From IMG/VR virus record IMGVR_UViG_2811995091_000194: 31,381 bases of DNA; one strand, given 5' to 3'. The notes under the pieces were generated by a model. That model saw only the letters and a list, made by a program, of their open reading frames with translations. It was not told the DNA's origin and searched no databases. Origin of the DNA: an uncultured virus (IMG/VR IMGVR_UViG_2811995091_000194). Taxonomy: Duplodnaviria; Heunggongvirae; Uroviricota; Caudoviricetes. This document shows, piece by piece, positions 1-14,186 of this stretch (position 1 is the stretch's first letter; every line of letters starts with the position of its first letter). Position numbers and translations under genes: made by a program.

Positions 1-975
1 TGTATTGGGCGTTATTATCTCATTGTTAACAAATTCAGCATTGTCAGTTGTTATAAATGCGATTTGATAGTCTGCTCCTGATGCTGAAAACACATTTATA
101 AATGAGTCAAAATTATTCTTAAGGTTTGTCTGGTGGCTGCTCATTGAGCAAGAGTTGTCTATGACAAATAGAATATCGGACATAGCATCTTCTTTTTGCT
201 CAAATGAATCTAGCGCAAATGCGAAATAATCACCATGTCCTTCTTGGTCTACTGTTTCTACAGGTGTGACTGGATCGTTTGATGAAATTTCAAGATACCC
301 AATATCTAGAATGTTGTCAAGAGGAAGATAGTCTATAAATATTTCAACAGAGCTCCCAGGAGAAATTATCCACGGAAACATTCCGTTTTCTTGATCATTT
401 TTATTAATGTCCAGATTGACTGGGTGTGATATAAAATAGTTAATTGAGCTGACTTCTAGATCAACATTTCCAATATTTGAAATTACTACTGGAAGGGTGT
501 CATCACATCCAACATTAATGTTTCCAAAATCATAGTATGATGGTTCAACATCTATTACTGGTGCATCTCCTGATCCGTTGACTGGAATTCTAACCGTGCG
601 ATCTTCTGGGTCATTCGACTGTATTAAAATTGTGTTTGTGTCTGCTGAGTATGTATTTGGCTCATAATAGACAAAGAACTCTGTATGAGATCCCGGTGAT
701 AGATCTTTCTCATGTATTGTTGTGATTGAGTGAACGCCCGTCATTGAGTCAAGATAAATGCTATCTATGCTAAGTTCATCATCACCAATATTTGTAATTG
801 TTACTTTTTGAGTACCCACATCATTCCCAGATAGAAGAGGGCCAAAATCAATACTAAGTGGCGAAACTAAGATGTCAGGTATTTTATCAGGACTATCTAA
901 AAGCTCATAATCAATACAGCTGGTAGATAAAACTGCAATAGTTGCTGGAAATATATATTTATAGATGTTGATCAT
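1..975 (-). CDS. Lipoprotein with two choice-of-anchor D (ASH/Ig-like) domains and a vWA domain, CglB-like; 3' end runs off the window
   Basis: Not in the ORF track. Hand translation from ATG at 975 is open to position 1: MINIYKYIFPATIAVLSTSC (lipobox-like), repeats PDILVSPLSIDFG..VTITNIG..IQSNDP and PVIDVEPSYYDFG..VVISNIG..ISSNDP, then DILFVIDNSCSM (MIDAS DxSxS)..NFDSFI..DYQIAFITTD. Confidence 0.85.
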   Translation of the reverse strand, partial: MINIYKYIFPATIAVLSTSCIDYELLDSPDKIPDILVSPLSIDFGPLLSGNDVGTQKVTITNIGDDELSIDSIYLDSMTGVHSITTIHEKDLSPGSHTEFFVYYEPNTYSADTNTILIQSNDPEDRTVRIPVNGSGDAPVIDVEPSYYDFGNINVGCDDTLPVVISNIGNVDLEVSSINYFISHPVNLDINKNDQENGMFPWIISPGSSVEIFIDYLPLDNILDIGYLEISSNDPVTPVETVDQEGHGDYFAFALDSFEQKEDAMSDILFVIDNSCSMSSHQTNLKNNFDSFINVFSASGADYQIAFITTDNAEFVNNEIITPNT

Positions 976-1033
976 TTGTTAATACATATGCTGAGTTTCT
1001 ATGTTCTAAAGTTCAAATATGTAGAAATATAGA

Positions 1034-1285
1034 ATGATTATTAAAAAAGGCGATCTTGTTCAGTACACTTCTCATCCTCACGCAACAGTGCATCGAGTTA
1101 TTCCTGGAGATGAATTCCCAGTAGGCCTTGTTATATGCGTAAAAGAAAGTGTTACGCGCGGAGGCCCAAAGATGCGAGCAATAATAAGGACAGTTATCGT
1201 CAAATGGTCAGATGAAAAATGGAATTCTAAAGAAGGCGTGTCTGAAGAATTTGAACCAGACTTAAAGCTTATTCAGCGAATTTAA
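1034..1285 (+). CDS. Small SH3/KOW-like GDLV-family protein
   Basis: KKGDLVQY, VGLVI, VKWSD, ends DLKLI. Confidence 0.7.
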   Translation: MIIKKGDLVQYTSHPHATVHRVIPGDEFPVGLVICVKESVTRGGPKMRAIIRTVIVKWSDEKWNSKEGVSEEFEPDLKLIQRI

Positions 1286-1300
1286 TAGTTATTAAATGAA

Positions 1301-1723
1301 ATGATAATAACAGAAAGCAATTTAAGATATAAAATTAGAGATGCCATTAAGAGTGCAGCACAAAAAAAACTACAAGTACGAGTCAATTCACTTCCACTTA
1401 ATGTAGAGGTAGCTGATACAGACGGTTTGCGTGACATAGGCTTGATGAACAGACGAAGCCTTCAAAGAGACTCGGGCATGCTTTTTGTGTTTCCAGATTC
1501 TGACGTTAGAGCTTTCTGGATGAAAAATACACACATACCTTTATCAATTGCATATCTTGATGAATCCGGTGTAATACTGAATATAGAAAAAATGACCCCT
1601 CTAAATGGTGACAGGATTTGGTCGAAAGGTCGTGCAATGTATGCACTTGAAGTTAATGATGGCTGGTTTGATATAAATGAAATCAGTGAAGGCGACATAG
1701 TAAGAAACCTTCCAAAGATTTAA
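1301..1723 (+). CDS. DUF192 (COG1430) protein with N-terminal MxITxxxLRxxIR leader
   Basis: VEVADT..GLMNR..GMLFVF..FWMKNT.IPLSIAYLD..YALEVNDGW..GD. Confidence 0.9.
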   Translation: MIITESNLRYKIRDAIKSAAQKKLQVRVNSLPLNVEVADTDGLRDIGLMNRRSLQRDSGMLFVFPDSDVRAFWMKNTHIPLSIAYLDESGVILNIEKMTPLNGDRIWSKGRAMYALEVNDGWFDINEISEGDIVRNLPKI

Positions 1724-1732
1724 AATAACAAT

Positions 1733-2059
1733 ATGGGAAATAGAGAAATAAACTCTGGAGATATTGTTATTATCAAAACAGATAGATCGCTAGACGGATT
1801 TTCAACTGGCCCGCATGTAAAGGGAGGATTGAAAATCTACAAAAGAATTGATCTATCAAATTATCCATCACATAATGATTTTTTCGGAAGCTCTGTCACT
1901 GTAAAAAGCGGAGACATAGCAACAGTAATTAGCTATATTGGAAGGCCAGATAGACTTAGTTCTGCGGAACAGTGGAAGATATATGATGTATACGAAATAC
2001 TTGTGAAAGGAAATGTGTATCAGATGTTTAGACAGAACATTAAGCTGTCTAAGAAATAG
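1733..2059 (+). CDS. SH3/KOW-like GDLV-family protein
   Basis: INSGDIVII and VKSGDIATVI, YEILVKG. Confidence 0.6.
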   Translation: MGNREINSGDIVIIKTDRSLDGFSTGPHVKGGLKIYKRIDLSNYPSHNDFFGSSVTVKSGDIATVISYIGRPDRLSSAEQWKIYDVYEILVKGNVYQMFRQNIKLSKK

Positions 2060-2080
2060 ATATAATATAAGGTGATTTCA

Positions 2081-2404
2081 ATGAAAATAACACGCAGTGA
2101 TCTAAGAAAAATTATAAGAGAGCAGCTTGATCCATATAGGCCTTCATCTAAGTTTTCTGTTAAGCTAAAAGGAGATCCAAAAACGCACTACGTGTCTACA
2201 GCATCACCTATGGTGACATCAGATGTTGCATGGCAGCTTGCTCTTTCTCGTCTTAGCATGGAAAATATTAGTGCTGTGTATGACGACGACGACGACGGAA
2301 CTGTTGACTGGACAGAGCTTGGAGCTCTTATTAAAGATCTGGGGGGCGCGTGGGAAGAAAAAGAAAGGCAGCTAAGATACGATCGTGAAAAAATAAGAGA
2401 ATAG
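2081..2404 (+). CDS. Hypothetical protein with MKITRSDLRKIIREQL leader (putative virion/head protein)
   Basis: SD AAGGTGA upstream of ATG 2081; leader motif shared with several genes in the window. Confidence 0.65.
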   Translation: MKITRSDLRKIIREQLDPYRPSSKFSVKLKGDPKTHYVSTASPMVTSDVAWQLALSRLSMENISAVYDDDDDGTVDWTELGALIKDLGGAWEEKERQLRYDREKIRE

Positions 2405-2425
2405 TGGCTATGGGAGGTCGCACAC

Positions 2426-2794
2426 ATGAAAGATGTAGTATTTAAGTTTTTTATTGTATCATTGATCTTTCTTACAGGATGCTCGGGAAAGCTACATTAC
2501 GCAGGAAAGGGGTTTGAGCCAAGCCAAAGCTTGTGTGTAGATGCTCTGCTTGTGAATATGGACAAGGCTGGATGTAACATAATATATTATGGATACTCTC
2601 CAAGCCACGGTGCGTTCAAGGTAAGGTGCATAGATTCTAGCAAGGTTGATTCAAATGATGACTGGGTGTCTCATGAGTGGACAACATATTCATTTTTTAT
2701 CTCTCCGTCATTTGCAAGCCCTGAACTGCATGCCAAGTTATCGCCAATATGCTCAGATAGAAATGTCACAGTATATTTTTTAAATGAAAATTAA
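2426..2794 (+). CDS. Putative lipoprotein
   Basis: SD GGAGG; hydrophobic signal peptide with lipobox LTGC. Confidence 0.75.
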   Translation: MKDVVFKFFIVSLIFLTGCSGKLHYAGKGFEPSQSLCVDALLVNMDKAGCNIIYYGYSPSHGAFKVRCIDSSKVDSNDDWVSHEWTTYSFFISPSFASPELHAKLSPICSDRNVTVYFLNEN

Positions 2795-2804
2795 TTTTAA
2801 GACA

Positions 2805-4349
2805 ATGAAAATCACAAAAACGCAATTAAGAAGAATCATTAGAGATGAATTAATAAATGAAGCACAGACAGCTAATAGCCCATATTTTGGCGATGACAAC
2901 AGCGGTCAGGCTGTTGCGATAGATCAGCAAGGATCCGGTGTTTTAAGCAGCATCTCCGGTGCAATTGATAAAGGTGATCATGCTGATGAGTCAATACGGA
3001 TAGAGATGAGAAGAAGAGCAATCAATGATTTTTCTTCTTTATACGTTGCCGCAATTCAGGAGGAGTTAAAAGTCTTCATAGTAGAAAACCCAGGAATTTC
3101 AGGATTTGATGATTTATCTACTAGAAGAGTTAATGATATAAAGGTAGCCGCGGCCAGAAGAGCTCTTTCAAAGTATAAAGGTGCACATACAAATACTGAA
3201 CTAATATCTGATTACACGTCAAGAGTTGAAAGATTAATTGGTAAGCCCATACCACCAACACTAAAGCAATTAATGATACGATATGCAAAAGATTTCGCAT
3301 ATCAATTTGTTTTTGGATTTTTAGATAATGTTATTCTAATTCTTGCAGGAGCAGCAATTGATGACTATATAAAAATTGCATTTGGTGCTGAAAAATTAAA
3401 GAGGGTGCTTTCACCAGACGATCTTGGCTTTATAACAGACGGTATTGGTAATGCAATTTCTGATGGCGTCGGTGACATAGGCGGCGGTGCTGTAGAGAGA
3501 GGTGTTGATAATTGGGCCTGGCTAAATGATGCAGCAACAGATGAGCAGCTAGAAATAGCTACTCCTTTTCAAAAGCTTATGGCAAAAACTGCTACATTTA
3601 CTGGTGTGATTCTTGGATGCTTAGCTGCAATACCCATAGGGATATTAATATTAAAAGGATTGACGACTCTAGGGGTTTCAGCAACAGCGGGAATAGGCTT
3701 AGCTGGCGGAGTACTATCGGGTGGTTTAGGTTTAGTAACAGCTGCACTGATGACAAAGACAACAGTTGATGAATTTAATATGCTTGATAGTGCAGCAAAG
3801 GATACAATGAATTCTGCGCTAGGTGTGGTTATGTCAAGACTATATAAGGAAATAAAGACACGAGGTAACGATAGTCTTCCTCCTCGTAGCGAATATACGC
3901 TTGATAATTTTACCAATGATGTGGAGGCCAACAGAGCTCTTGCGCAGTTAATATGGAATGATGAGATGGATTTTTCAAAGCTGGCATCACATCATGATAT
4001 TAATTATAATGAAATTTGGAGAACAGTTGACGCGCTATCCAGTCAGTACGGCCTAGATAATCCAAACGTAACATCTATTGATGAATGTCATATTATGACA
4101 ATTACAAAAAATCAATTGATTAACATGATATGTAAGGTAATCGTTGAAGAATCGAATCGAAATAAAAAACATAGCGGTCATCATCCAGAGGAGTCATATG
4201 AGGTAGGAACATCTAAAAATTTAATGTTAGATAGACCAACACAGCATGGCGGCTGGCCAGAAGGCCCTAGTAAAAGCTATACTAGTAACAAGCCAGTAAA
4301 TAAGCAGATTTATGACTGGTTAAAGTCAATGGCAATGATAGACGACTAA
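2805..4349 (+). CDS. Membrane protein with a TMEM65-like domain and MKITKTQLRRIIRDE leader
   Basis: FVFGFLDNVILILAGAAID..GIGNAISDGVGDIGGGAVE..TDEQ..GVILGCLAAIP matches the TMEM65 motif order; second leader-like motif at 4095. Start could be 2784. Confidence 0.75.
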   Translation: MKITKTQLRRIIRDELINEAQTANSPYFGDDNSGQAVAIDQQGSGVLSSISGAIDKGDHADESIRIEMRRRAINDFSSLYVAAIQEELKVFIVENPGISGFDDLSTRRVNDIKVAAARRALSKYKGAHTNTELISDYTSRVERLIGKPIPPTLKQLMIRYAKDFAYQFVFGFLDNVILILAGAAIDDYIKIAFGAEKLKRVLSPDDLGFITDGIGNAISDGVGDIGGGAVERGVDNWAWLNDAATDEQLEIATPFQKLMAKTATFTGVILGCLAAIPIGILILKGLTTLGVSATAGIGLAGGVLSGGLGLVTAALMTKTTVDEFNMLDSAAKDTMNSALGVVMSRLYKEIKTRGNDSLPPRSEYTLDNFTNDVEANRALAQLIWNDEMDFSKLASHHDINYNEIWRTVDALSSQYGLDNPNVTSIDECHIMTITKNQLINMICKVIVEESNRNKKHSGHHPEESYEVGTSKNLMLDRPTQHGGWPEGPSKSYTSNKPVNKQIYDWLKSMAMIDD

Positions 4350-4427
4350 TATTTCTATAGTTCCTGGTTCATAATAAAAAATTAAACTATGTGATAATAT
4401 TATTATGTCACATGGACTATTATTGAA

Positions 4428-4709
4428 ATGGGCAAACAAGAAGACATTATTCTAAAAAGAATAAACAGTATTAGAAGTATGCAACTGATGCAATTAAAAG
4501 ACAAGGTCTCATCTCTTAGAGATGGCGTTGACAGACTATCAGATAAAATTGAACAAGATGGATTAAATGGTTTTTATAGTTCAAATTCAGACATTTTAAG
4601 ATACAGCCAGGAGGTGTGGAGGGCATCACAGTATCTTCAGACGCTAATGGACATTGAGCATGAGCTAATTATTAAATCTCGACATAAAAAGACAAGAAAG
4701 AAAAAATGA
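4428..4709 (+). CDS. Hypothetical helical protein
   Basis: 93-aa ORF, ATGA overlap with the next gene. Confidence 0.6.
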   Translation: MGKQEDIILKRINSIRSMQLMQLKDKVSSLRDGVDRLSDKIEQDGLNGFYSSNSDILRYSQEVWRASQYLQTLMDIEHELIIKSRHKKTRKKK

Positions 4710-4906
4710 TAATAGACATATATGTTCATAGCAGGGCTGATAATATATCTAAACAAATTAAAAAAAGTGAATATCACAAGCTTCTTGCCACTTTAAAGCA
4801 AAATTCAAAAACCGGAAAGCCCATGCTGTTTAAATTTGAAGATGGATCAATTGTTCGATTATGTGACATACAGTACATTGACACCGCACCTGATATCCCG
4901 TTCTAG
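4706..4906 (+). CDS. Hypothetical protein
   Basis: 66-aa ORF, coupled to the upstream gene. Confidence 0.55.
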   Translation: MIIDIYVHSRADNISKQIKKSEYHKLLATLKQNSKTGKPMLFKFEDGSIVRLCDIQYIDTAPDIPF

Positions 4907-4923
4907 AGAAATTCTGAATTCAA

Positions 4924-4952
4924 TTGAACATTTTAAAAAAATGCTATATAAC
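4924..4952 (+). promoter_or_regulatory. Possible sigma70-type promoter TTGAAC-N17-TATAAC
   Basis: Intergenic, upstream of the deaminase; a second TATAAT lies at 4958-4963. Confidence 0.4.
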
Positions 4953-4990
4953 AATAGTATAATACTGCTAAGGAGAATGTATCGTGTCTA

Positions 4991-5347
4991 GTGTACTATC
5001 GAGCTCGTAAATTAGCAATGAACAATGGTAGGTGTTATCATTTAGCTGCAATTCTTCGAAGAAAAGGTCGTATAATTAAGGTTGGTGTTAATTCCAGCAA
5101 AACGCACCCGAGGTTTAAAAGAACGTATCCCGATGGGACAACTGGATCGCACATGCACGCTGAGATGAATGTTATTAGATTTGCAAAAGAAGGTGATGAA
5201 ATCGAGGTTATGAGATTCAAAAGAACAAATAATGAGTTCGCGATGGCTAAGCCTTGTAAGTACTGTATGTTTCACATCAGAAGCGCAGGTATCAAAAGTG
5301 TAAGATACACTGATGAAAACGGCGTGTGGAATAAGATGGCCATATGA
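4991..5347 (+). CDS. Cytidine/deoxycytidylate deaminase-family protein
   Basis: HAE and PCKYC zinc motifs; LAAIL..G.N. Confidence 0.85.
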   Translation: MYYRARKLAMNNGRCYHLAAILRRKGRIIKVGVNSSKTHPRFKRTYPDGTTGSHMHAEMNVIRFAKEGDEIEVMRFKRTNNEFAMAKPCKYCMFHIRSAGIKSVRYTDENGVWNKMAI

Positions 5348-5353
5348 TATAAT
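5345..5353 (+). promoter_or_regulatory. Extended -10 promoter TGA-TATAAT; probably a leaderless transcript
   Basis: TGnTATAAT; ATG 5360 is 6 nt downstream and has no SD. Confidence 0.55.
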
Positions 5354-5359
5354 ATAAGT

Positions 5360-5584
5360 ATGACAAAGCAATCAAAATCTTTTTATGACGTTCACGGCAA
5401 TATCATCAACGTGGGAGATCTTGTTCGATATACGTGGGACAAAAATATCATTGGTATGGTAACAGGTCTCACACCGTTTTTTGACCAGGGATCGATTGAC
5501 GTGATTTGTGATCATCGTCTTGCGTTGACATGTATCATCTGCGATAGCAGTCGTAGCACCGTTGCTATCGAGGTGGTCAGGTGA
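5360..5584 (+). CDS. GDLV-family SH3/KOW-like microprotein
   Basis: INVGDLVRY, IGMVT, ends IEVVR. Confidence 0.75.
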   Translation: MTKQSKSFYDVHGNIINVGDLVRYTWDKNIIGMVTGLTPFFDQGSIDVICDHRLALTCIICDSSRSTVAIEVVR

Positions 5585-5883
5585 TGTATCAGATTGGTGA
5601 CATGGTCGGTGTGTGGAACAATGATGACAATTGCGAAGAAACAGGCGTGATCATTGACATCCGTCCGCTTCATCGTCCCACACGTCTGGATGAGTCTGAG
5701 TTCATCGTTCTTGTCGAGGGCACAGTGTGGAATCTAAGTGACAATGAGATCTTTCTCCCAGGTGAATCTCGACCCAGCAACCCTGATGAGACGATTGCAA
5801 GGCGATTCTTTTCTCGTCAGCAAAGATATGGGCGTGAGGATCTCATGAAAGGAGTTGTCGTCTCAGAAGAGAGGGATCGATGA
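5581..5883 (+). CDS. GDLV-family microprotein
   Basis: YQIGDMVGV, TGVIID, IVLVEG. Confidence 0.75.
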   Translation: MMYQIGDMVGVWNNDDNCEETGVIIDIRPLHRPTRLDESEFIVLVEGTVWNLSDNEIFLPGESRPSNPDETIARRFFSRQQRYGREDLMKGVVVSEERDR

Positions 5884-6116
5884 GTGTTGGTGATCTTGTG
5901 ATGTACAATTGGCGCGGATTTGCTTATGGTGTTCACAGGGATATGCTTTGTCCTTGTATCATTATGCGTATCTATGCAGAAGATGAGAAGCGAAGGATAT
6001 TGGGGAAGGTTCACTGGAAAAAATGGGAGTCTGAGACAATGTATGATGTGCTCATTGATGGAAGAGAGATGATTGTCCTATCAAGCATGTTAGGAAAGGC
6101 TGAGGATGTAAAATGA
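5880..6116 (+). CDS. GDLV-family microprotein
   Basis: MSVGDLVMY, YDVLIDG. Confidence 0.75.
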   Translation: MSVGDLVMYNWRGFAYGVHRDMLCPCIIMRIYAEDEKRRILGKVHWKKWESETMYDVLIDGREMIVLSSMLGKAEDVK

Positions 6117-6427
6117 GCATGGGATGGAAATACGGGCTGATCAAGGTCGGCGTCGAGGATGAGGGAACTGAGCTTGAGAAGCAGATCAATCTTCTTGTTG
6201 AGCTGTACCCACTTGGCGACAACGGCGAGTACACTTCATTTTGTAAGGCCAGGATTCAGACGCTAGAGGAACTTCAAAATGCCCAGAGCGATATTGAACG
6301 TGACGGGACCAGTACATGGTTCTATGATAACGGTACATTTACCTGGAACGTCTGTCCACACTGCTTAGCCGGTGATTGGGATTACGAACCGAAAAACTGC
6401 TACGCGCACGGAGAGAGCGATGAGTAA
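6113..6427 (+). CDS. Hypothetical protein (one CxxC)
   Basis: ATGA-coupled ORF, 104 aa. Confidence 0.65.
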   Translation: MSMGWKYGLIKVGVEDEGTELEKQINLLVELYPLGDNGEYTSFCKARIQTLEELQNAQSDIERDGTSTWFYDNGTFTWNVCPHCLAGDWDYEPKNCYAHGESDE

Positions 6428-6674
6428 GATGATAGAGCTAAGAGAAGGTGATGTGTTGATCAGGCACGTTCGAAATGGTTGGGAGGTGTTAACACCTAAC
6501 GAGGTTGACCCAGAGTACATTGATACCTGGGTATATGATGATACAGTTGGGATCCACAAGGCCCTACAACAACTTCTCTGGGATCATCTCTCTGCATGGT
6601 TTCAGAGTAAGCATCATGGCGGTCTAGTTGTTGATGTGAGCGATAAAGGGCGTGAGGAAGAAGAAGATGAGTAA
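6420..6674 (+). CDS. Hypothetical protein
   Basis: SD GGAG before ATG 6420; LREGDVLIR resembles the family motif weakly. Confidence 0.65.
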   Translation: MSKMIELREGDVLIRHVRNGWEVLTPNEVDPEYIDTWVYDDTVGIHKALQQLLWDHLSAWFQSKHHGGLVVDVSDKGREEEEDE

Positions 6675-7374
6675 GAAAAACTATAAGGTCCCACAGGTTT
6701 TCTATGGAGATTGGAGTGATGATCTAGAACCAGGGCATGAGAATTACTGGTGGGACATCGGAACAATCGCAGAGTGGATCGGCTATGCACTTATCGGAGG
6801 ATCTCACGGGTGTCGTGTTGACCTCTACAGACCAAATACGATCCACGTATCCCAGACAAAGGAGAAGTTCGGAGGTGTTCGAGCTTACTGTCACCTAGCA
6901 TCTTATGAGCAGGTCCAGGAGAAATATAGGCTAGAGCTAATGAACATCACCAAGCAGAATAGGCTGTACTTTACATGGAAGCAAGGTAAAAAGGATCCCG
7001 ATGCTGACGGGTATCCCGCACAATACATAGTTAGAATGTATGAGGAAGAAGGAAGATACCCTCTATCCACACCAAGCATTGATGAGTTCACCCAGGGCTG
7101 CGCGCTAGCTGATGCTAGATGGTACCGCCGGGTGTATCGAAATGCTGCTAGGCTCTGGCCGCAGTATGAATCGGCTATTATTGATTCAGCTGATTACTAT
7201 GAGTACCTGTTCAATACAGAGGCGGAACTAGATGATAACTATGACAGACGAAAGATCGACATAGAAAAGAGTGATTATCTCAGCGATGAGCAAAAGAAAT
7301 CGCAAGTAGTCAGTCTAGAGGAAGATCGTAAGTATGTTAAAAATGTATGCGAATTCACGCAGGAGAAAGAGTAG
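6667..7374 (+). CDS. Conserved phage hypothetical protein (QxKEKFGxxRxY motif)
   Basis: QTKEKFGGVRAY; overlapping start. Confidence 0.7.
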   Translation: MSKKNYKVPQVFYGDWSDDLEPGHENYWWDIGTIAEWIGYALIGGSHGCRVDLYRPNTIHVSQTKEKFGGVRAYCHLASYEQVQEKYRLELMNITKQNRLYFTWKQGKKDPDADGYPAQYIVRMYEEEGRYPLSTPSIDEFTQGCALADARWYRRVYRNAARLWPQYESAIIDSADYYEYLFNTEAELDDNYDRRKIDIEKSDYLSDEQKKSQVVSLEEDRKYVKNVCEFTQEKE

Positions 7375-7593
7375 ATGAAGAAAATGTTTAAGAAGATGAT
7401 TGATAACCTACCGTTAGTTTTATTTTTTACCCTTGGTTTCTTGGTGCTATACACAGCTTTTCTTAAGTCGTATGTCAAGCCAGGCGCGAAGTGTTATCAA
7501 AATTGTATCCCGCTGGCCAGCGAGGTCGTTAACAGACAGTGTTGGTGTCGGCTTGACAGAAATACGATGAAACTGCACAATGATGAAAGCTGA
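7375..7593 (+). CDS. Small membrane protein with a Cys-rich C-terminus
   Basis: TM segment LPLVLFFTLGFLVLYTAFL; CYQNC..CWC. Confidence 0.65.
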   Translation: MKKMFKKMIDNLPLVLFFTLGFLVLYTAFLKSYVKPGAKCYQNCIPLASEVVNRQCWCRLDRNTMKLHNDES

Positions 7594-7789
7594 ACCCATG
7601 GAGGGCGATCTCATTAGGCTAACCAGCCCGGACATTGGAAGTGGGTCAGACGAGTATGTTGCGCTGATGATTGGGCATGGTGACATCAGGTACGCTAACA
7701 GGCCGTTCTACACGGTCTTGATCGATGGTGAGATCCAGGATGTCGACAGCGGATACTGGGAGATAGAGAGGGTAGGGAAGTCTGCCTGA
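7580..7789 (+). CDS. GDLV-family microprotein
   Basis: MEGDLIRL, YTVLIDG, WEIERV. Confidence 0.75.
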   Translation: MMKAEPMEGDLIRLTSPDIGSGSDEYVALMIGHGDIRYANRPFYTVLIDGEIQDVDSGYWEIERVGKSA

Positions 7790-7796
7790 TCCTTTC

Positions 7797-7825
7797 GTGT
7801 AATCTGGCCGCGCTCGGTATATAAT
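7797..7825 (+). promoter_or_regulatory. Phage early-type promoter GTGTAA-N17-TATAAT
   Basis: Motif repeated at six sites with exact 17-nt spacing; ATG 6 nt after the -10 box. Confidence 0.8.
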
Positions 7826-7831
7826 GATAAC

Positions 7832-8056
7832 ATGAACAGGAATAATCACGGATCATGGGCGAAGGTGGGAGATCTTGTTGAGATCCTGTCACCGCTAGGG
7901 AAGTCAACTGGCATATTCGGTGCGATCGTTGAGGAGCGATATGTGGGAATCCATGGAACAAGAAACATTCTTGTGTTGTGCGGTGATCATAGGGTTGATG
8001 GAAAGGTGTCAAGTTGGGTGAAGGATTGCTATGTCAGAATCGTGGAGGCGGCATGA
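7832..8056 (+). CDS. GDLV-family microprotein
   Basis: AKVGDLVEI, FGAIVE, ends VRIVEAA. Confidence 0.75.
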   Translation: MNRNNHGSWAKVGDLVEILSPLGKSTGIFGAIVEERYVGIHGTRNILVLCGDHRVDGKVSSWVKDCYVRIVEAA

Positions 8057-8247
8057 GACAGGGTGATCTAGTTCTGATAAGCTTCCCTGATCAAAACGGT
8101 ACGGGAATCTATCTAGAGGTCGACCCTGCAAATCTTACGAGATCGCTTGTCCTGTGGGACAGTGAGATCTATTCTATCCCAACATATCAGCTAGAGGTAA
8201 ACAGTGACGTGTACTATGATGAGAATCGCGGTAAGATAAAAGGTTAA
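8053..8247 (+). CDS. GDLV-family microprotein
   Basis: SD GGAGG, MRQGDLVLI, TGIYL, VLWD, QLEV. Confidence 0.75.
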   Translation: MRQGDLVLISFPDQNGTGIYLEVDPANLTRSLVLWDSEIYSIPTYQLEVNSDVYYDENRGKIKG

Positions 8248-8258
8248 GGAGGTGACAG

Positions 8259-8582
8259 ATGTCACTGTTGCGAAAGGTTAAATATGAGATCTGCGACTGG
8301 GCCGGCCATGTCCTGTGTGAGTTCTCATTCAGGTTGTGGGACCTGTTTGACAAGCCGTATGATGAGTGGCGCTGGTGGAATCATGCGATCTATCAGGTCG
8401 GCCGACCGACCTACACTGCCGGATGTTTCTTCTACAGCCTGAATGATTGCGAGCTGGGTGATGTCGTTCTTGAACTAAGCGACGGGTGCGGCGCAGACGG
8501 TGAGTGTTCTCGCTGTGCCGAGCCCTGCTGTCCGGACTGCGGTGTGTGCGAACCCTGTTTTTACGAAGATGAGGATGAGTGA
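8259..8582 (+). CDS. Hypothetical protein with a Cys-rich (zinc-binding?) C-terminus
   Basis: SD AAGGAGGT; CSRC..CCPDC..CEPC. Confidence 0.65.
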   Translation: MSLLRKVKYEICDWAGHVLCEFSFRLWDLFDKPYDEWRWWNHAIYQVGRPTYTAGCFFYSLNDCELGDVVLELSDGCGADGECSRCAEPCCPDCGVCEPCFYEDEDE

Positions 8583-8585
8583 TAG

Positions 8586-8741
8586 GTGAGCGATCGATCG
8601 ATCCACAGCGCCAAGATTCTTGCGATCCTCGTCGTGGTCATGATCATGTCACACTGTCAGCCAGTTCGAAAGTTTATGAATTCACCAATCTTTGGAGAGG
8701 TAAAAAGTGAAAGTCAGGATCCTGTCAGATCTACACCTTGA
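8586..8741 (+). CDS. Possible small membrane or lipoprotein (51 aa)
   Basis: Hand translation MSDRSIHSAKILAILVVVMIMSHCQPVRK..; fills the intergenic gap. Confidence 0.4.
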   Translation: MSDRSIHSAKILAILVVVMIMSHCQPVRKFMNSPIFGEVKSESQDPVRSTP

Positions 8742-9432
8742 GCATAGTGGTCATCGAAAGGAGTTCATCGATGGGCTTGACAACGACTGTGATCTTCTCA
8801 TCCTCGCGGGTGACATCGACTCATGTCTGGACATCGATCGCACGCTTGACATGTTCTGTGCCAGGTTCAGCAACGTGATCCACGTACCTGGGAATCATGT
8901 ATATTACATGTCGTCGCCTCAAAAGATACATGACATTCTCACTTCTGCCAGCGCGAGAAACGACAACCTTCACTATCTCCACACGGAGGACCCAACAGTC
9001 GTGATCGACGGGAGGACGTTCCATGGGTCAACCGGCTGGTTCAGACGAGATCCGCTCAACTTCCACTACGAGAAGAACATGGGTGACTTCCACTACATCG
9101 ACGGGTTCAAGCCTTGGGTGTATGATCAGCAGGAGGTGTTCCAGCACCACCTGGAGGAGAACCTGACGCAAGGTGACATCGTCATCACGCATCACATTCC
9201 CAGTGAGTTCTGCGTGGCGAAGGAGTGGAAGGGGTCAATCCTTAACAGGTTCTTTGTCTGTGACCACAGTGATCTCATCCTTGATCGAAAGCCAGCGCTC
9301 TGGTTTTTTGGTCACACGCACACTAGCTTTGACGGCGTTCTCGGAGAGACCAGGTTCATCTGCAATCCGAGGGGCTATCCCAATGAGTCAAGCGGACAGA
9401 TGTTTGACCCTTGCAAAGAGGTCGAAATATGA
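8707..9432 (+). CDS. Calcineurin-like metallophosphoesterase
   Basis: SDLH, AGD, PGNH, THH, GHTH, NPRGY motifs. Confidence 0.92.
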   Translation: MKVRILSDLHLEHSGHRKEFIDGLDNDCDLLILAGDIDSCLDIDRTLDMFCARFSNVIHVPGNHVYYMSSPQKIHDILTSASARNDNLHYLHTEDPTVVIDGRTFHGSTGWFRRDPLNFHYEKNMGDFHYIDGFKPWVYDQQEVFQHHLEENLTQGDIVITHHIPSEFCVAKEWKGSILNRFFVCDHSDLILDRKPALWFFGHTHTSFDGVLGETRFICNPRGYPNESSGQMFDPCKEVEI

Positions 9433-9668
9433 CAGTTATAACTAATCGAAAGGTCCGTCCCGGCGACTTGGCAACAATTTATAAGGATGAAAACCCTGAT
9501 TGGGCGTGGGCGTACGAAGACGCTGCGACTAAAGAGTTTGTTACACTAAGATCGGGCGACGTCGTTCTCGTGATTAGCAACGGCCACTGGGCGCACATCC
9601 TATATAACGGTAGAGTTCTTGAAGGTAAGAGAACGTGGTTAAGAGCGATAGCGCATGAAGACAGGTGA
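9429..9668 (+). CDS. GDLV-family microprotein
   Basis: VRPGDLATI and LRSGDVVLVI; ATGA overlap. Confidence 0.7.
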   Translation: MTVITNRKVRPGDLATIYKDENPDWAWAYEDAATKEFVTLRSGDVVLVISNGHWAHILYNGRVLEGKRTWLRAIAHEDR

Positions 9669-9867
9669 CCTGGTCAGGATCTCACTTGATGTGATGTATC
9701 TTCCTAACTATCTCGAGGGGAAGATCGGCGTCATAATTGATCAGGAGAGTTCTATCTTCACAAAAAGAATGAGCTCGACACCGACACTGTCTGTCATGAC
9801 GCATTCTGACGAGTATGGATCTGAGGTCTGGACGATAGGCGTGGAACACCTTGAGGTGATATCATGA
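9655..9867 (+). CDS. GDLV-family microprotein
   Basis: MKTGDLVRI, IGVIID, ends HLEVIS. Confidence 0.8.
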   Translation: MKTGDLVRISLDVMYLPNYLEGKIGVIIDQESSIFTKRMSSTPTLSVMTHSDEYGSEVWTIGVEHLEVIS

Positions 9868-9876
9868 TCCTGTTAC

Positions 9877-9905
9877 GTGTAATCTGCCCGGCGGCGGTGT
9901 ATAAT
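9877..9905 (+). promoter_or_regulatory. Promoter GTGTAA-N17-TATAAT
   Basis: Near-copy of the 7787-7830 intergenic module. Confidence 0.8.
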
Positions 9906-9912
9906 AAAAACA

Positions 9913-10173
9913 ATGGAAGGAAACATGCACTGCAAGATCTGCGGTACACAGAATAACGTATCATTCAGGGCTAGCCACACGTGGAAAATGTGTGATCACT
10001 GTCACGAGAACTCTGACAAGCACGTTCTCTCATACGGAGAGTTCAATGATGAGTATTGGGATGACGATGATGATGTTCCTTTCTGCACGAGGAATGAGTT
10101 CTACAGCGACTACAGGTCATCAGGCCTGTCGTATGAGGATTACGTGAGCCAAACAAGTGAGGTGATGTCATGA
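9913..10173 (+). CDS. Small zinc-finger-like protein
   Basis: CKIC..CDHC; alternative start at 9925. Confidence 0.65.
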   Translation: MEGNMHCKICGTQNNVSFRASHTWKMCDHCHENSDKHVLSYGEFNDEYWDDDDDVPFCTRNEFYSDYRSSGLSYEDYVSQTSEVMS

Positions 10174-10427
10174 GTGTAATGGGACCAGACGGAAAGATCA
10201 TTCAACCAGGCGGCGGGTGGTGGTCACCGTACGGTGATACCGATGAGGAGATCATGGAGAACATGAGAACAGGTCACATGCCAAACGCCCCCGGCGCCGT
10301 GAGGGTCGGACCAAGAAGTATCACGGGTAGTGAGAAGGGAGATCGATCTCTACTCGACGCTCTCGGTGACATGGGTGCGCTAGCTGGAACAGCTAGAGAG
10401 GCGTACGAGGATAGGAAAAAGAAATGA
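10170..10427 (+). CDS. Hypothetical protein
   Basis: SD GAGGTGAT; ATGA overlaps at both ends. Confidence 0.65.
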   Translation: MSVMGPDGKIIQPGGGWWSPYGDTDEEIMENMRTGHMPNAPGAVRVGPRSITGSEKGDRSLLDALGDMGALAGTAREAYEDRKKK

Positions 10428-10597
10428 AAGTCGGTGATGTGGTAAGACACAAGGAGCTTAATCAGATTGGGATTATCTTCCAGCGCATTCCAGAAAAGGG
10501 TAATCCTTATCAGAATATGTATCTGATTTACTGGAACAACAACATCATTAGCGCTTCTTTTGATGCAAAGCTGGAGTTTCTAAATGAACACAGGTGA
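10424..10597 (+). CDS. GDLV-family microprotein (57 aa, missing from the ORF track)
   Basis: MKVGDVVRHKELNQIGIIFQ..YLIYWNN..KLEFLNEHR. Confidence 0.75.
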   Translation: MKVGDVVRHKELNQIGIIFQRIPEKGNPYQNMYLIYWNNNIISASFDAKLEFLNEHR

Positions 10598-10796
10598 TCT
10601 CGTTAGGTGGTCCTGGTATCTTAGCACGGATTGGGCGACAACTCACTTCACTGGGATCATTGTCGACTCATCAGTGTTTAACACTAGCTTTCACACATCA
10701 GGAACGGAAACAATCCGTGTTTTTGACGTGCTAGATGACACAGGTCAGGTGGTTCGTGTCAGGGCAGATGAACAATCACTGGAGGTGATCACATGA
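10584..10796 (+). CDS. GDLV-family microprotein
   Basis: MNTGDLVRW, TGIIVD, ends SLEVIT. Confidence 0.8.
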   Translation: MNTGDLVRWSWYLSTDWATTHFTGIIVDSSVFNTSFHTSGTETIRVFDVLDDTGQVVRVRADEQSLEVIT

Positions 10797-11002
10797 AAGT
10801 CGGTGATCTGGTCAAGGTGAGGGATTGTGAGCATATCGAAATGTTTGACTGTTCGTGTGTGCTTTGCTGTCATCGTTCTAGCCGAATCGGGCTGATCGTA
10901 TCACAGGCGCCGATGAACTCATTCGCGGTTCAGTTTGACTTCGGCGAGTGGCGACTTGACAAGTTTGACTTCGCGAGAGGCGATGTTGAGGTGATAGGGT
11001 GA
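10793..11002 (+). CDS. GDLV-family microprotein with a CxCxxC insert
   Basis: MKVGDLVKV, CSCVLC, IGLIV, ends DVEVIG. Confidence 0.8.
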   Translation: MKVGDLVKVRDCEHIEMFDCSCVLCCHRSSRIGLIVSQAPMNSFAVQFDFGEWRLDKFDFARGDVEVIG

Positions 11003-11226
11003 TAAAAGAAGGTGATCTCGTTAGGTTCTACAATTACGACTATTTTAACGATCCCTCATGGGAGATAGGTATCGTGGTTGAGATAACGCATGAACTGCCA
11101 GAGGAGAACTGGGATGAGAACTCCCTACCCGCTGCGATCGTCATGAATGATAAGCATATGATGGCGATCTGTGTTCCTAACGAGATCAACTATGGAACGT
11201 GGGTCGAGGTGGTAGGATGCAAGTAG
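10999..11226 (+). CDS. GDLV-family microprotein
   Basis: IKEGDLVRF, IGIVVE, WVEVV. Confidence 0.8.
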   Translation: MIKEGDLVRFYNYDYFNDPSWEIGIVVEITHELPEENWDENSLPAAIVMNDKHMMAICVPNEINYGTWVEVVGCK

Positions 11227-11435
11227 GCGCTCTGGTTCAGTTCAGGAGGGTCCAGAGATATCACTCTGATGGTCAACACCTACGAGATGAGGAGATGACA
11301 ACAGGGATCATCGTCGAGCAATTCCCGCCACCCGATGAGGTTCTCTTCGTGATGATGGGATGGCGGTGTATAGATGGTAAGATGATCTGGAATAATGACA
11401 TGGTCGTAACTGAGGAAGACGTGCGGGTGATATGA
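11217..11435 (+). CDS. GDLV-family microprotein
   Basis: MQVGALVQF, TGIIVE, ends DVRVI. Confidence 0.75.
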   Translation: MQVGALVQFRRVQRYHSDGQHLRDEEMTTGIIVEQFPPPDEVLFVMMGWRCIDGKMIWNNDMVVTEEDVRVI

Positions 11436-11605
11436 TGAGAAAGATCTTTAATTTTTTCAGCGAGTGGAGCGATTATCTCTCTGGCATGCTATTGGGTGCG
11501 ATCCTCGGGGGTTATGTCGTGTACCAGGCGAGGGGTGATGAGATCGCCGAGATCCATGCTGACCACCGTGAGCGAATTGAGGCGATGATAAGTGAAGATA
11601 GGTGA
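11432..11605 (+). CDS. Small single-TM protein (57 aa, missing from the ORF track)
   Basis: MMRKIFNFFSEWSDYLSGMLLGAILGGYVVYQARG..; overlaps both neighbours. Confidence 0.6.
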   Translation: MMRKIFNFFSEWSDYLSGMLLGAILGGYVVYQARGDEIAEIHADHRERIEAMISEDR

Positions 11606-11786
11606 TCTGGTAAGTATCAAGTGGTCTGAACCGATGCGTGGCATGAAGTCTGTGTACACATCCACCATCGGGATCATTATCTGCGCTCATCAGCTATCGG
11701 ACACATCTGTGGATGCGTTCGTGGTATTGTGGAGTAACGGGGAACAACTACCTCACATGTCATGTTACCTGGAGGTGATAAAATGA
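11592..11786 (+). CDS. GDLV-family microprotein
   Basis: MKIGDLVSI, IGIII, VLWSNG, ends YLEVIK. Confidence 0.8.
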   Translation: MKIGDLVSIKWSEPMRGMKSVYTSTIGIIICAHQLSDTSVDAFVVLWSNGEQLPHMSCYLEVIK

Positions 11787-12001
11787 AAGTCGGTGACCTG
11801 ATCAGACGTCGCTTTGTCACACTCGCGCAAAAGAGAAGGATGATGGGGTTCGATCCTGCTTTTGACCCTGACGCGTTATACATCGTGACCAAGATCGATG
11901 ATGATCTCGGGGGTGCGCAGATCCTGAATACTGCAACAGGGAACGTGGAAACTGTCGTGAACTCGACTGACTACTACGAGGTGATCAGTGAAACCCGGTG
12001 A
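11783..12001 (+). CDS. GDLV-family microprotein
   Basis: SD GGAGGTGA, MKVGDLIRR, YEVISE. Confidence 0.8.
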   Translation: MKVGDLIRRRFVTLAQKRRMMGFDPAFDPDALYIVTKIDDDLGGAQILNTATGNVETVVNSTDYYEVISETR

Positions 12002-12197
12002 CATAGTAAAAATGCGATATCATAATGACGCCTTTGGAATCATCATAGAGAAATATAATAGCCCAACAGTTAAGATCGGAAACAGGGCGCATCAACTTAA
12101 CGCAAATCTTTACGACATTCTCTGTAGCAACGGTAAAATACTCTGCTACATGCCAAGCATGGGGCTCGAGGCGGTAAATGAAAATGCTAAAACTTAG
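11988..12197 (+). CDS. GDLV-family microprotein
   Basis: MKPGDIVKM, FGIIIE, YDILCSNG, LEAV. Confidence 0.8.
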   Translation: MKPGDIVKMRYHNDAFGIIIEKYNSPTVKIGNRAHQLNANLYDILCSNGKILCYMPSMGLEAVNENAKT

Positions 12198-12279
12198 AAA
12201 AGGCGATATGATATTTTTTGATCCGCCCCCAGGATCAGGTCGCGCTGCTATGTTTCATAAGGGTAACAAAAATGAGTGA
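12178..12279 (+). pseudogene. Truncated GDLV-family remnant (33 aa)
   Basis: MKMLKLRKGDMIFFDPPPGSGR.. stops just inside the start of the next gene. Confidence 0.45.
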
Positions 12280-13366
12280 TTACAACATCACAGATCCAGA
12301 GATCATCAAGATGCTCGATAATCTAAATGAGGAAGAACGCAAAGGCGTTGCTGATCAGATTCAGAAAACATTTGATAAGCTCAATGAAGCACGATCAGCG
12401 AGCGATAACGAGTTCACACCAGAAGAGTTTCTGAAAACGCTCGGCATTATGATTGATAGACAAACTGGGGAGGATAAAATGTCATTTGTCCCTTGGAAAG
12501 AAAGCGCAATTGAGAATCTAGAAGAAATCTTCCGAGAGCATAGCGAAATGGAAGATAAACTTGAATGGCTTGCAAAACACCTTGATATGCATGAATATGC
12601 TCCAAGGATTCTTGAAGATTATCATAAAGAGTTTAGCATCGTTACGTCCTGCGAAACGAGCAAAGAGGAATCAGCACGTATTGATGCGATCGAGAATATA
12701 AAAGAAAAATTAAAAACAGCCCAGCGTTGCTGGGGAAATGTTTCGGAACGCTTAGATTGGCTAGAAGAAAGAATGGAAGAGTGCCGGGTCACATTTGACA
12801 TTGATATGATTCTTTCGGAATATGAGGAAAAATTCTTTGCCTTAAAGCATGATAATGTCCATAAAGAAGTTGGCAAGGGAAGGGCAGTAAAAACTGTGAG
12901 ATCGGAATCTCCGCTAACTCACGTTGGCAAAGTAAAGCTAAAAGTAAAAAGCGTGGAACCGATGACTTATTCATCTGTTGGCGATGAACTCTGCAATATC
13001 GCAGAAGACGGAGTGTGCGAGAGTTTAGAGTGTAAGGAACACAACACAAACTGGTATAGCTGCGCTCACTGCGACGCCGGATATGAAGATCAGGAGTGTG
13101 TTTGCGACAAGTGGATCTGCGACGGATGTCTAAAGGCGTTCGGAAACGACGAGGCCAACACGGTCGTAACAACAAAAACTGTATCCGGCATTGTGATGTG
13201 TGAGAGTTGCATGAGACCAGACGAGGACGTTCTTGACAATAGCGAGGAGGCGCTGCTAAGCAGGATGTGCGATGAGATCGAGGCGGAGTGTTTTGGCGAG
13301 GACTTTGACTATGATCGCGAGAGGATGAAAAAAACATTGCATATGATCCTTGATACAAGTGAGTAA
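12272..13366 (+). CDS. Acidic multi-module hypothetical protein with an internal helical duplication and Cys-rich C-terminus
   Basis: AIENL..LEWL..ILEDY and AIENI..LDWL..ILSEY; several CxxC; internal SD+ATG at 12479. Confidence 0.7.
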   Translation: MSDYNITDPEIIKMLDNLNEEERKGVADQIQKTFDKLNEARSASDNEFTPEEFLKTLGIMIDRQTGEDKMSFVPWKESAIENLEEIFREHSEMEDKLEWLAKHLDMHEYAPRILEDYHKEFSIVTSCETSKEESARIDAIENIKEKLKTAQRCWGNVSERLDWLEERMEECRVTFDIDMILSEYEEKFFALKHDNVHKEVGKGRAVKTVRSESPLTHVGKVKLKVKSVEPMTYSSVGDELCNIAEDGVCESLECKEHNTNWYSCAHCDAGYEDQECVCDKWICDGCLKAFGNDEANTVVTTKTVSGIVMCESCMRPDEDVLDNSEEALLSRMCDEIEAECFGEDFDYDRERMKKTLHMILDTSE

Positions 13367-13646
13367 GCAAAAAGAGGTTCCTAAGGTGAAAGAGGGTGAC
13401 CTGGTCCGCATCATCGACGACAACGGCGACGACAGGGGCGTCGGCATGTTCATGGAAAGATTTAGACCGATCGACCGCGGACTGTCAAAGATCGACCTCC
13501 AGGAGGGTCAACTCGACGCCACATACATGTTCACAGGCAGGTCATTCATAGGTCACGCCCCCACCTTCTGGCACTATGAGGTGCTATGGGAGGGAGAGCT
13601 ACGCTGGCTAAATACGGATCATTTTACGCTGATATCGATGTTGTAG
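13359..13646 (+). CDS. GDLV-family protein
   Basis: VKEGDLVRI, VGMFME, YEVLWEG. Confidence 0.75.
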   Translation: MSKQKEVPKVKEGDLVRIIDDNGDDRGVGMFMERFRPIDRGLSKIDLQEGQLDATYMFTGRSFIGHAPTFWHYEVLWEGELRWLNTDHFTLISML

Positions 13647-13679
13647 ATAATAGCGTGATCGTTCACAAGGAGAACAAGA

Positions 13680-14186
13680 ATGATTAAGATGATAACAGTC
13701 ATTGCTGGATTACTTCTAGCAACACCCGCTACTGCGGAAACAACAAACTCACTAGGCTTTGCAGCGGGTGGGACATACGGCGCTGGCCTGTCATACTCAC
13801 ACGACACAGACACCTGGGGATACCAGGTTACCGGATTACCCATATGGGATGAGACAGACGGCGGTAAGGTGTTCGGGGGTGTTAACATCAAGAGGAACTT
13901 CCACGAGAATGGTCGGGTCGGTGTGTACGGATCCCTGGGCCTGGCCGGAGGACTCTGGCGCGACACATATGAGGATTGCGATTGGAATGAGGAATCTGGA
14001 GAGGACGACTGTGTCACCGTGACCGACGAGGGTTGGGGCGCAGTGACAGGCCCTGGTGTCGGGATGCAAGTTGTATTTCTCAAGAACATGCTATTCAGGT
14101 TCGAACTCCCCTTAGGGTTCAGGTACGGATCAGAGGGGTTTGGAATCACACCCTTGCCGAACACCGCACTCATGTACCGCTGGTGA
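13680..14186 (+). CDS. Secreted outer-membrane beta-barrel-like protein
   Basis: SD AAGGAG; signal peptide ..ATPATA; Gly/aromatic alternating strands; C-terminal LMYRW. Confidence 0.7.
   Translation: MIKMITVIAGLLLATPATAETTNSLGFAAGGTYGAGLSYSHDTDTWGYQVTGLPIWDETDGGKVFGGVNIKRNFHENGRVGVYGSLGLAGGLWRDTYEDCDWNEESGEDDCVTVTDEGWGAVTGPGVGMQVVFLKNMLFRFELPLGFRYGSEGFGITPLPNTALMYRW

Follow-up and report, generated by a model that had tools for sequence, protein, structure and literature searches.

Only recently did TMEM65 come to be regarded as a Na+/Ca2+ exchanger of mitochondria. For the human protein, Na+/Li+-dependent Ca2+ exchange inhibited by CGP-37157 has been described (PMC12830682, PMC13254257), NCLX-independent activity has been reported (PMC12830682, PMC13254257), and purified TMEM65, a homodimer, was found to carry out Na+/Ca2+ exchange in liposomes (PMC13254257). 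Residues D132, D167, G170 and E178 of human TMEM65 were required for activity, G140L and Q195E were neutral and E144Q resulted in a gain of function (Vetralla et al., PMC12830682). An EF-hand is carried by many non-metazoan orthologues, and a glycine-zipper motif has been tied to channel formation (PMC13254257). No solved TMEM65 structure was found in the PDB by sequence or fold search, and a literature search returned no title or abstract describing a phage or prokaryotic TMEM65. Here, a TMEM65-type gene is described from an uncultured virus of the Caudoviricetes (IMG/VR record IMGVR_UViG_2811995091_000194), of which the whole analysed stretch of 31,381 nucleotides (nt) is called the window below.

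The gene and its parts were delimited as follows, with residues numbered from the first ATG of the open reading frame (ORF) and lengths given in amino acids (aa). Structures were predicted with AlphaFold2, for which the predicted local distance difference test (pLDDT) is given.

2784..4349, + strand: whole ORF including the stop codon, 521 aa counted from the first ATG.
2805, + strand: ATG that is the probable true start, giving a product of 514 aa.
2805..2855, + strand: N-terminal tag, residues 8-24, sequence MKITKTQLRRIIRDELI, a module shared at the peptide level with unrelated proteins.
2856..3281, + strand: N-terminal helical soluble domain, residues 25-166, family-specific, pLDDT 70-85 for roughly residues 60-140.
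3282..3659, + strand: TMEM65-family core, residues 167-292, delimited by Pfam, alignment and the AlphaFold2 domain model.
3294..3362, + strand: membrane helix 1, residues 171-193, hydropathy maximum 1.88, with FGFLDN (D181) and AGAAID (G189, D193).
3390..3422, + strand: 11-residue insert EKLKRVLSPDD, residues 203-213, in the loop that joins helix 1 to helix 2, seen as an 11-column gap in eukaryote-like and short-form rows.
3423..3497, + strand: helix 2, residues 214-238, polar and glycine-zipper-like, GIGNAISDGVGDIGGGAVE with D227, G230 and E238, corresponding to helix 50-81 of the domain model.
3585..3653, + strand: membrane helix 3, residues 268-290, hydropathy maximum 2.49, TFTGVILGCLAAIPIGILILK with G274, G278 and C279.
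3657..3758, + strand: extra Gly/Ala-rich hydrophobic segment, residues 292-325, hydropathy maximum 1.76, present in long-form rows only.
3759..4094, + strand: C-terminal helical soluble domain, residues 326-437, IWNDEMDFSKLASHHD...GLDNPN, pLDDT 76-84 for residues 341-400.
4095..4346, + strand: fused tail, residues 438-521 (84 aa), a copy of a stand-alone tagged protein family of about 80 aa with an HGGWPEG motif.

The start was assigned by comparison. In the alignment the MKIT tag forms the N-terminus of every relative, and the stop codon of the upstream lipoprotein ORF lies at 2792-2794, with the ATG at 2805 following 10 nt further; the gene product is therefore likely to have 514 aa. This agrees with the protein of about 515 aa given in a preliminary description of the window, which had been made from the sequence alone. 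In a related contig the gene starts with a GTG immediately 3′ of the upstream stop. The strings on which that description had based a TMEM65-like domain at 3300-3640 were all recovered from the translation of 2784-4346, namely FVFGFLDNVILILAGAAID (residues 175-193), GIGNAISDGVG (220-230), GGAVE (234-238), TDEQ (252-255) and GVILGCLAAIP (274-284). Together they span residues 175-284 (nt 3306-3635), within that interval.

Family membership was examined with profiles and large sequence collections. PF10507 (TMEM65) was the single significant Pfam-A family on the ORF, with an E-value of 4.3e-9 and a score of 36.7 bits where the curated cut-off is 25 (residues 176-280, nt 3309-3623, profile positions 8-99 of 109). 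The hidden Markov model (HMM) comparison with Pfam TMEM65 thus gave a match above the curated cut-off, and the presence of a TMEM65-family domain in a phage protein, as first described, was confirmed. A word-indexed search of 5.8 billion proteins yielded 18 close relatives (308-515 aa, 46-64% identity), all 18 from marine metagenome sources and already annotated with PF10507. Following a HMMER search with the family profile against 1.84 billion representatives, 49 proteins were obtained at E ≤ 1e-3; PF10507 was present above cut-off in 40 of the 41 that were scanned, and the exception, a DUF7507 repeat protein, matched the C-terminal module alone. Using BLASTP, the core was aligned with Sphaeroforma arctica XP_014152129, an EF-hand and TMEM65 protein (row P0059 in our alignments), at 33% identity over 128 aa (E 2e-15). 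Across 44 diverse core sequences, F177, G178, D181, G222, S226, D227, G278 and C279 were invariant and F179, N182, G189, D193, N223, G230 and G274 nearly so. The ordered TMEM65 motif series (FGFxDN...AGxxID; GNxxSDxxG followed by an acidic position; GVxxGC) was found on three helices.

Negative results were obtained from several collections. The protein had no match in PHROGs or NCBIfam, and its small neighbours had none in NCBIfam either. With the whole protein, tblastn against 50,697 GenBank phage records returned nothing at E 1e-3; megablast with 12-30 kb of the window gave no match; a word-indexed search with residues 160-335 for shorter relatives gave none; and the family profile matched 0 PDB sequences at E up to 1. 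The eukaryotic orthologues have a common format of about 25 kDa with a mitochondrial presequence and the core near the C-terminus, and the protein described here has 514-521 aa, a phage tag and about 230 residues after the core. Judged by its sequence, the core truly belongs to the TMEM65 family; the ORF product is a member by domain and not an orthologue in format.

The positions required for activity in human TMEM65 were traced in the protein of the window (P0001 in alignments) from offsets between residues. The positions at human D132 +8 and +12 correspond to G189 and D193, those at D167 +3 and +11 to G230 and E238, and that at E178 +17 to Q255, each of them conserved. The spacing from D132 to D167 is 35 residues in the human protein and exactly the same in the eukaryotic row P0059; it is 46 in P0001 because of the 11-residue insert (residues 203-213) in the loop of its clade. 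D181, D227, G230 and E238 would thus be the equivalents of human D132, D167, G170 and E178, and all four positions appear to be kept. This is the main reason to think that the core still handles cations.

The predicted structures were of unequal use. For the full protein AlphaFold2 gave a mean pLDDT of 52.9, with values below 50 in the membrane core, which was therefore unusable. For residues 162-331, using the 44-row alignment, the pLDDT was 82.4 and the predicted template modeling score 0.70, and long helices were found at the three expected places; the model was weak at the extra segment (pLDDT <50 for domain residues 144-156). Residues 292-325 are a probable fourth membrane helix, missing from canonical TMEM65 and from the short viral forms. 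Glycine-zipper patterns were read at S226xxxG230xxxG234 and G274xxxG278xxxA282, with more in residues 292-325. A Foldseek search of the PDB with the domain model gave no convincing solved analogue (best E 2.2), and VIA-align against 48,161 chains returned generic helical bundles, with best Z scores of 6.8 for the core and 7.1 for the full model. A VIT1-like fold, which had been considered in the preliminary description, was not among the rows of either search.

More than two-thirds of the protein is soluble sequence outside the core and is conserved across the family. Both the N- and the C-terminal domain are conserved within the family and predicted to be helical. The N-terminal domain ends with a conserved pre-membrane segment, GKPIPPTLKQLMIRYAKDF, and the 11-residue loop insert is restricted to the closest long-form relatives. 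For the N-terminal domain no match was found in Pfam, PHROG, NCBIfam, PDB or ESM Atlas; for the C-terminal domain no family or fold match was found in Pfam, VIA-align or ESM Atlas, and with neither part did ESM Atlas give a usable match. A motif of the C-terminal domain, EMDFSKLASHHDINYN (residues ~388-432, window 3945-4080), resembles a repeat of P0040, a 2734-aa DUF7507 protein with seven repeats. The identity of 34-36% over 44 aa was judged to be local and probably due to chance; the C-terminal domain is predicted to be helical.

An ion-handling role at the host membrane, also proposed in the preliminary description, is the best reading of the protein, on the basis of the conserved positions essential in human TMEM65. 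It is considered probable, with modest confidence, that the phage expresses a cation exchanger or conductance of the host inner membrane, built on the TMEM65 core. An uncultured giant marine phage would make this integral membrane protein in a bacterium, presumably after infection. The protein would be inserted into the cytoplasmic membrane with its N-terminus inside, and with three TMEM65 helices and one extra helix both large soluble domains would be cytoplasmic. Cations would move along a polar path lined by D181, D193, D227, G230 and E238, Ca2+ coupled to Na+ or H+ being the most likely ions. As reported for human TMEM65, the protein would probably be a homodimer. Transport would give the infected cell a new ion balance or membrane state, and regulation or anchoring of the core is the probable task of the phage-specific N- and C-terminal domains and of the fused small protein.

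The tail at residues 438-521 was compared with its stand-alone relatives (n = 8, 79-96 aa, 54-80% identical), which share the motif ...NLMLD..SHGGWPEG...PVN.QI..WLK; seven of the eight open with a tag of the type MK.T..LR..I. In most relatives the TMEM65-type protein terminates with ...ESRxxKLAGI. In the window and in the closest relative (protein P0002, contig L001) the stop is absent, and the same fusion is present in both. The tail is the result of a real gene fusion. The internal copy of the tag has decayed, to MTITKNQLINMICKVIVEE in the window and to KDQLVYMIRHLIIAE in the relative, suggesting that the tag counts only when it is N-terminal.

The tag at the N-terminus of the TMEM65-type protein was also found on two of its neighbours:

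1301..1723, + strand: DUF192 protein (Pfam DUF192 E 4.9e-30) with a diverged copy of the tag, MIITESNLRYKIRDAI, found by regular expression.
2072..2404, + strand: tagged protein of 107-110 aa with one EF-hand loop, DDDDDGTVDWTE (EF-hand_6 E 3e-5, 23.8 bits, cut-off 25).

The consensus of this tag (tag A) is MKITxxQLRxIIxEE. Using an HMM built from 23 N-termini, it was detected on the TMEM65-type ORF (E 1e-5) and on ORF 2072-2404 (E 4e-4), with a weak match on the DUF192 ORF; a 137-aa protein and two orthologues in a related contig were matched as well. The tag of the DUF192 protein is conserved in L001 as MLITENQLRQTIRRML (gene 8810-9238). The DNA 5′ of the tagged genes is unconserved, and the repeat thus exists at the peptide level. 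By regular expression, tag A was found on 3 of 66 window ORFs (≥70 aa) and on 11 of 18 ORFs in L016, a locus with a further long-form TMEM65 gene. A second tag, MKLLFENWRKYL, was found on 9 of 17 ORFs in L009, 9 of 16 in L010, 3 of 9 in L011, 2 of 13 in L014 and 1 of 6 in L015, and at each of these loci the tagged set includes a short-form TMEM65 gene. Contig L010 has both tags. Shuffled controls for the regular expressions gave 0 of 2780. The shared N-terminal leader that had been noticed at the outset is therefore real. Named tagged cargo comprises DUF192, NUDIX and PGDYG proteins and an AAA_33 kinase. Dense arrays of genes with tag MKITxxQLRxIIxEE or MKLLFENWRKYL were located as follows:

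L016, 4206-11552: dense tagged-gene array.
L009, 205-7592: dense tagged-gene array.
L010, 1311-7427: dense tagged-gene array.

Beside the tagged genes a cluster of exported or envelope proteins was seen (window 1-975, − strand, and 26494-27156, + strand; L001 5584-8587), whose members include an Ig-like protein of the HYDIN/VesB type and a thioredoxin/AhpC-like lipoprotein; in the relative they also include a trypsin-like protease that bears a signal peptide.

A motif (I/L)-x-E, like the site of the T4 prohead protease, occurs in both tags. The capsid-targeting sequence of T4 (internal proteins IPI-III) is likewise a short N-terminal peptide on unrelated proteins that contains (I/L)-x-E and seemingly functions only at the N-terminus. 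By analogy with it, the tag could serve in head targeting or capsid loading. The systems differ in that neither Peptidase_S77, the T4-type prohead protease, nor the capsid protein Gp23 was found in any of six related viral fragments (32-50% complete), and in that an integral membrane protein and enzymes are among the cargo here. The 39 window ORFs that were scanned showed no Peptidase_S77 either. The collinear contig G001 encodes a ClpP-like 'head maturation protease' (phrog_94).

That the similarity to TMEM65 is an artefact, either a chance hydrophobic, Gly-rich resemblance or an ORF that is not a real gene, was considered in view of the moderate Pfam E-value and the lack of a PHROG, NCBIfam or PDB match. 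It was ruled out by PF10507, by the 18 full-length relatives, by the conservation across 44 sequences and by the Sphaeroforma alignment, and we regard it as extremely improbable: the conserved polar motifs are in register with those of eukaryotic members, a collinear gene is present in a second phage, and DNA of the window was found in marine metagenome runs from more than one study, with no RNA run among those listed. A function as a membrane-perturbing device, in which a glycine-zipper pore or leak would serve lysis timing in the manner of a holin, shutdown of host energy or phage exclusion, is suggested by the glycine-zipper patterns readable in the sequence, by the tie of that motif to channel formation in PMC13254257 and by the holin-sized versions of 92-131 aa in phages and a few bacteria. 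We consider it unlikely. Holins are small, usually <150 aa, and stand beside a lysis enzyme, whereas this protein has 514 aa with two large conserved soluble domains and no adjoining lysis enzyme, the ORF with peptidoglycan-binding and M23 domains at 22471-24351 being about 18 kb away. In addition, the buried acidic residues, which are strictly conserved, correspond to those that exchange by the human protein requires, and bacterial chromosomal homologues on contigs of 0.37-4.3 Mb argue for a physiological transporter.

The tags bear on a further explanation, in which the TMEM65-type, DUF192 and EF-hand proteins are loaded into the capsid like T4 internal proteins and ejected with the DNA, providing a ready ion path in the host membrane as infection begins. 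The occurrence of the tags on unrelated proteins in the counts given above, the unconserved upstream DNA, the decay of the tag inside the fused tail, the (I/L)-x-E shared by both tags and the phrog_94 protease of G001 all speak for such virion cargo. Its probability is nevertheless put low, since a core of three or four membrane helices would need to stay soluble in a capsid, ordinary enzymes (NUDIX, AAA_33 kinase, PGDYG, DUF192) are tagged too, and no Peptidase_S77 or Gp23 was detected in the incomplete related fragments. In another explanation the core would transport nothing by itself and would instead bind a cation transporter of the host and alter its activity, or hold the soluble domains at the membrane. 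One preprint reads TMEM65 as a regulator of NCLX-dependent efflux (PMC10592617), which also counts against a cation exchanger in the phage, and the large share of conserved sequence outside the core would suit a docking subunit. In later papers, NCLX-independent activity and liposome exchange by the purified protein are reported (PMC12830682, PMC13254257), and buried conserved charges are hard to reconcile with a pure anchor; a regulator or docking subunit is judged distinctly improbable. Other points weigh against the phage-expressed exchanger or conductance favoured here. The mapping of human residues was based on offsets and spacing plus the eukaryotic stand-in row P0059 and not on the human sequence. 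At position 238 the family has E or D but P0059 has Q, and this residue may thus not be needed in every member. With 36.7 bits the protein scores lowest of the long forms and far under the 75-131 bits of short viral and eukaryote-like forms, which marks the core as divergent. The EF-hand neighbour is under the Pfam cut-off and is missing from the collinear relative, which makes the calcium link weak.

Related forms were collected with the core alignment. Twenty viral loci were found in IMG/VR, comprising minimal proteins of 92-106 aa, short forms with a tag (283-364 aa) and two long forms. The cultured Vibrio phage 2.275.O (349 kb) encodes a 94-aa member, NVP2275O_332, whose GenBank note 'pfam:PF10507' was already present. 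Among 185,579 species genomes searched with one narrow pattern, at least nine loci were found, all encoding proteins of 111-131 aa in metagenome-assembled genomes (MAGs); having been obtained with a single pattern, this number is a lower bound. Eight of the loci are labelled Pseudomonadota or Gammaproteobacteria and one Campylobacterales, and some lie on contigs of 0.37-4.3 Mb. In a Foldseek search of predicted viral structures (BFVD), look-alikes of the core were observed in giant viruses of eukaryotes (probability 0.94-1.00, E 0.07-0.56). The top rows were Heterosigma akashiwo virus 01, a Megaviridae sample and Mimivirus LCMiAC01, and a 94-aa protein was also matched; these are leads only. 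Going by these models, TMEM65-like proteins may also be present in Nucleocytoviricota. In P0038, a 789-aa metagenome protein, a short-form TMEM65 is followed by a weak ArdA antirestriction match (24.4 bits, cut-off 27).

The short tagged viral forms (270-364 aa, leader MKLIMENWR...; P0033, P0039, L009-L011, L014 and L015) resemble the window protein in their origin from marine giant-phage contigs with tagged-gene arrays and in their order of parts, with an N-terminal tag, a helical soluble region, a pre-membrane 'PPxxKxxLxRF/Y' and then the TMEM65 core. They differ in carrying another tag and in having the core at the extreme C-terminus, which would face outside; they are without the fourth helix, the C-terminal domain and the tail, and their core is nearer to eukaryotic TMEM65 (75-103 bits). 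The minimal phage and bacterial forms (92-131 aa; NVP2275O_332 and the nine proteobacterial-type MAG loci) have the same three-helix core and motifs, but consist of the core alone, without tag or soluble domains, and stand far from P0001 in the tree. Shared with eukaryotic TMEM65 are the three-helix core with FGFxDN, AGxxID, GNxxSDxxG, the acidic VE/ID position, TDxQ and GVxxGCLxGxxP, the glycine zippers, the residues at the four essential human positions, a link to EF-hands and, presumably, the orientation of the N-terminus towards the matrix or cytoplasm. Eukaryotic TMEM65 has about 240 aa against about 514 aa in the phage, and the phage protein lacks the mitochondrial presequence and the poly-acidic tail. 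It adds a tag, an N-terminal domain of about 140 aa, the 11-residue insert, a fourth hydrophobic helix, a C-terminal domain of about 110 aa and the 84-aa fused protein. Unlike in eukaryotic TMEM65, the EF-hand is encoded by a separate gene, and the Pfam score is 36.7 bits; long-form relatives scored 35.7-54.4 bits and short viral and eukaryote-like forms 75-131 bits.

A tree was built quickly from 64 cores (118 columns, with many unresolved forks) and included two eukaryote-like rows. P0001 was placed in a clade of 11 long forms, supported at 96 in the Shimodaira-Hasegawa-like approximate likelihood ratio test (SH-aLRT). The two eukaryote-like rows grouped together (96) among short viral forms, and the bacterial rows formed one clade (99) beside the Vibrio phage protein. 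In this tree the window protein appears among the members farthest from the eukaryotic type, and the shorter viral and minimal bacterial forms appear nearer to it. The window protein thus says little about the origin of TMEM65, and the expectation that it might be informative on that point was not borne out, its long-form clade being derived and far from eukaryote-like sequences.

The phage and bacterial relatives indicate that the TMEM65 family is not confined to eukaryotes, and, keeping the essential positions, they offer small, bacterially expressible proteins for work on structure and mechanism. A dedicated phage cation exchanger, if true, would be a little-explored kind of host takeover. 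In the window the candidate exchanger is elaborated with phage-only domains and stands among tagged genes near an EF-hand protein. Three new findings come from this window: the fused tail, an insertion or deletion in the form of the tagged EF-hand neighbour, and the residue mapping. A far-reaching combination is entertained as a long shot: the tags would load a set of effectors (TMEM65-type exchanger, one-EF-hand protein and DUF192 protein) into the capsid, the injected calcium module would rewire host ions within seconds, and the minimal TMEM65 forms of phages and bacteria would represent the prokaryotic stock from which the mitochondrial exchanger arose.

The EF-hand ORF lies two genes upstream of the TMEM65-type ORF, and its best PDB sequence matches were all EF-hand proteins. 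It is the only gene of the collinear 14 kb without a counterpart in G001 and thus behaves as an inserted tagged cassette. A functional link to the TMEM65-type protein may exist; together with the fused EF-hands of TMEM65 orthologues, this neighbour gives a weak calcium hint of the Rosetta-stone type. The TMEM65-type ORF is flanked by a lipoprotein and a coiled-coil protein, of which the former is given here:

2426..2794, + strand: small lipoprotein directly upstream, lipobox LIFLTGCSG read from the translation, conserved in L001.

The window is densely filled with small overlapping ORFs on one strand. Phage-type genes identified with PHROG and Pfam encode a DNA ligase, RtcB, an SNase, a dCMP (deoxycytidine monophosphate) deaminase, a metallophosphoesterase and the protein with peptidoglycan-binding and M23 domains; the ligase has 33-35% identity to those of cultured phages. 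Positions 1-14183 are gene-for-gene collinear with the end of G001, an IMG/VR contig of 97 kb estimated to be 32% complete, from which a genome of about 300 kb follows. Besides one of the close relatives of the TMEM65-type protein, this contig carries DNA polymerase, DnaB, UvsX, ribonucleotide reductase, GroEL and a sigma factor. The lipoboxes and the peptidoglycan-binding enzyme indicate a bacterial host. In a promoter and terminator scan of 900-5400, sites were not above shuffles, and no transfer RNA (tRNA) gene was found in the window. The guanine-plus-cytosine content was about 0.33-0.39 at 1-5 kb and 21-26 kb and 0.50-0.56 at 8-20 kb. A chimeric assembly was rejected as the cause, the collinear relative having the same shift; the rise is a real genome mosaic.

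Further genes were observed in the window and in related contigs. An RtcB RNA ligase (14272-15489, + strand, 419 bits), the metallophosphoesterase (8707-9432, + strand) and an ATP-dependent DNA ligase (28303-29523, + strand) may form an RNA and DNA repair set, for instance against host tRNA cleavage. The ORF at 22471-24351 (+ strand) encodes a 626-aa protein with PG_binding_1 and Peptidase_M23 domains, which is large for an endolysin and may be a virion-associated wall hydrolase. In the related contig L004, a UvsX-like recombinase is apparently split into two ORFs by an HNH/homing endonuclease gene (7620-8375, 8911-9828 and 9923-10330).

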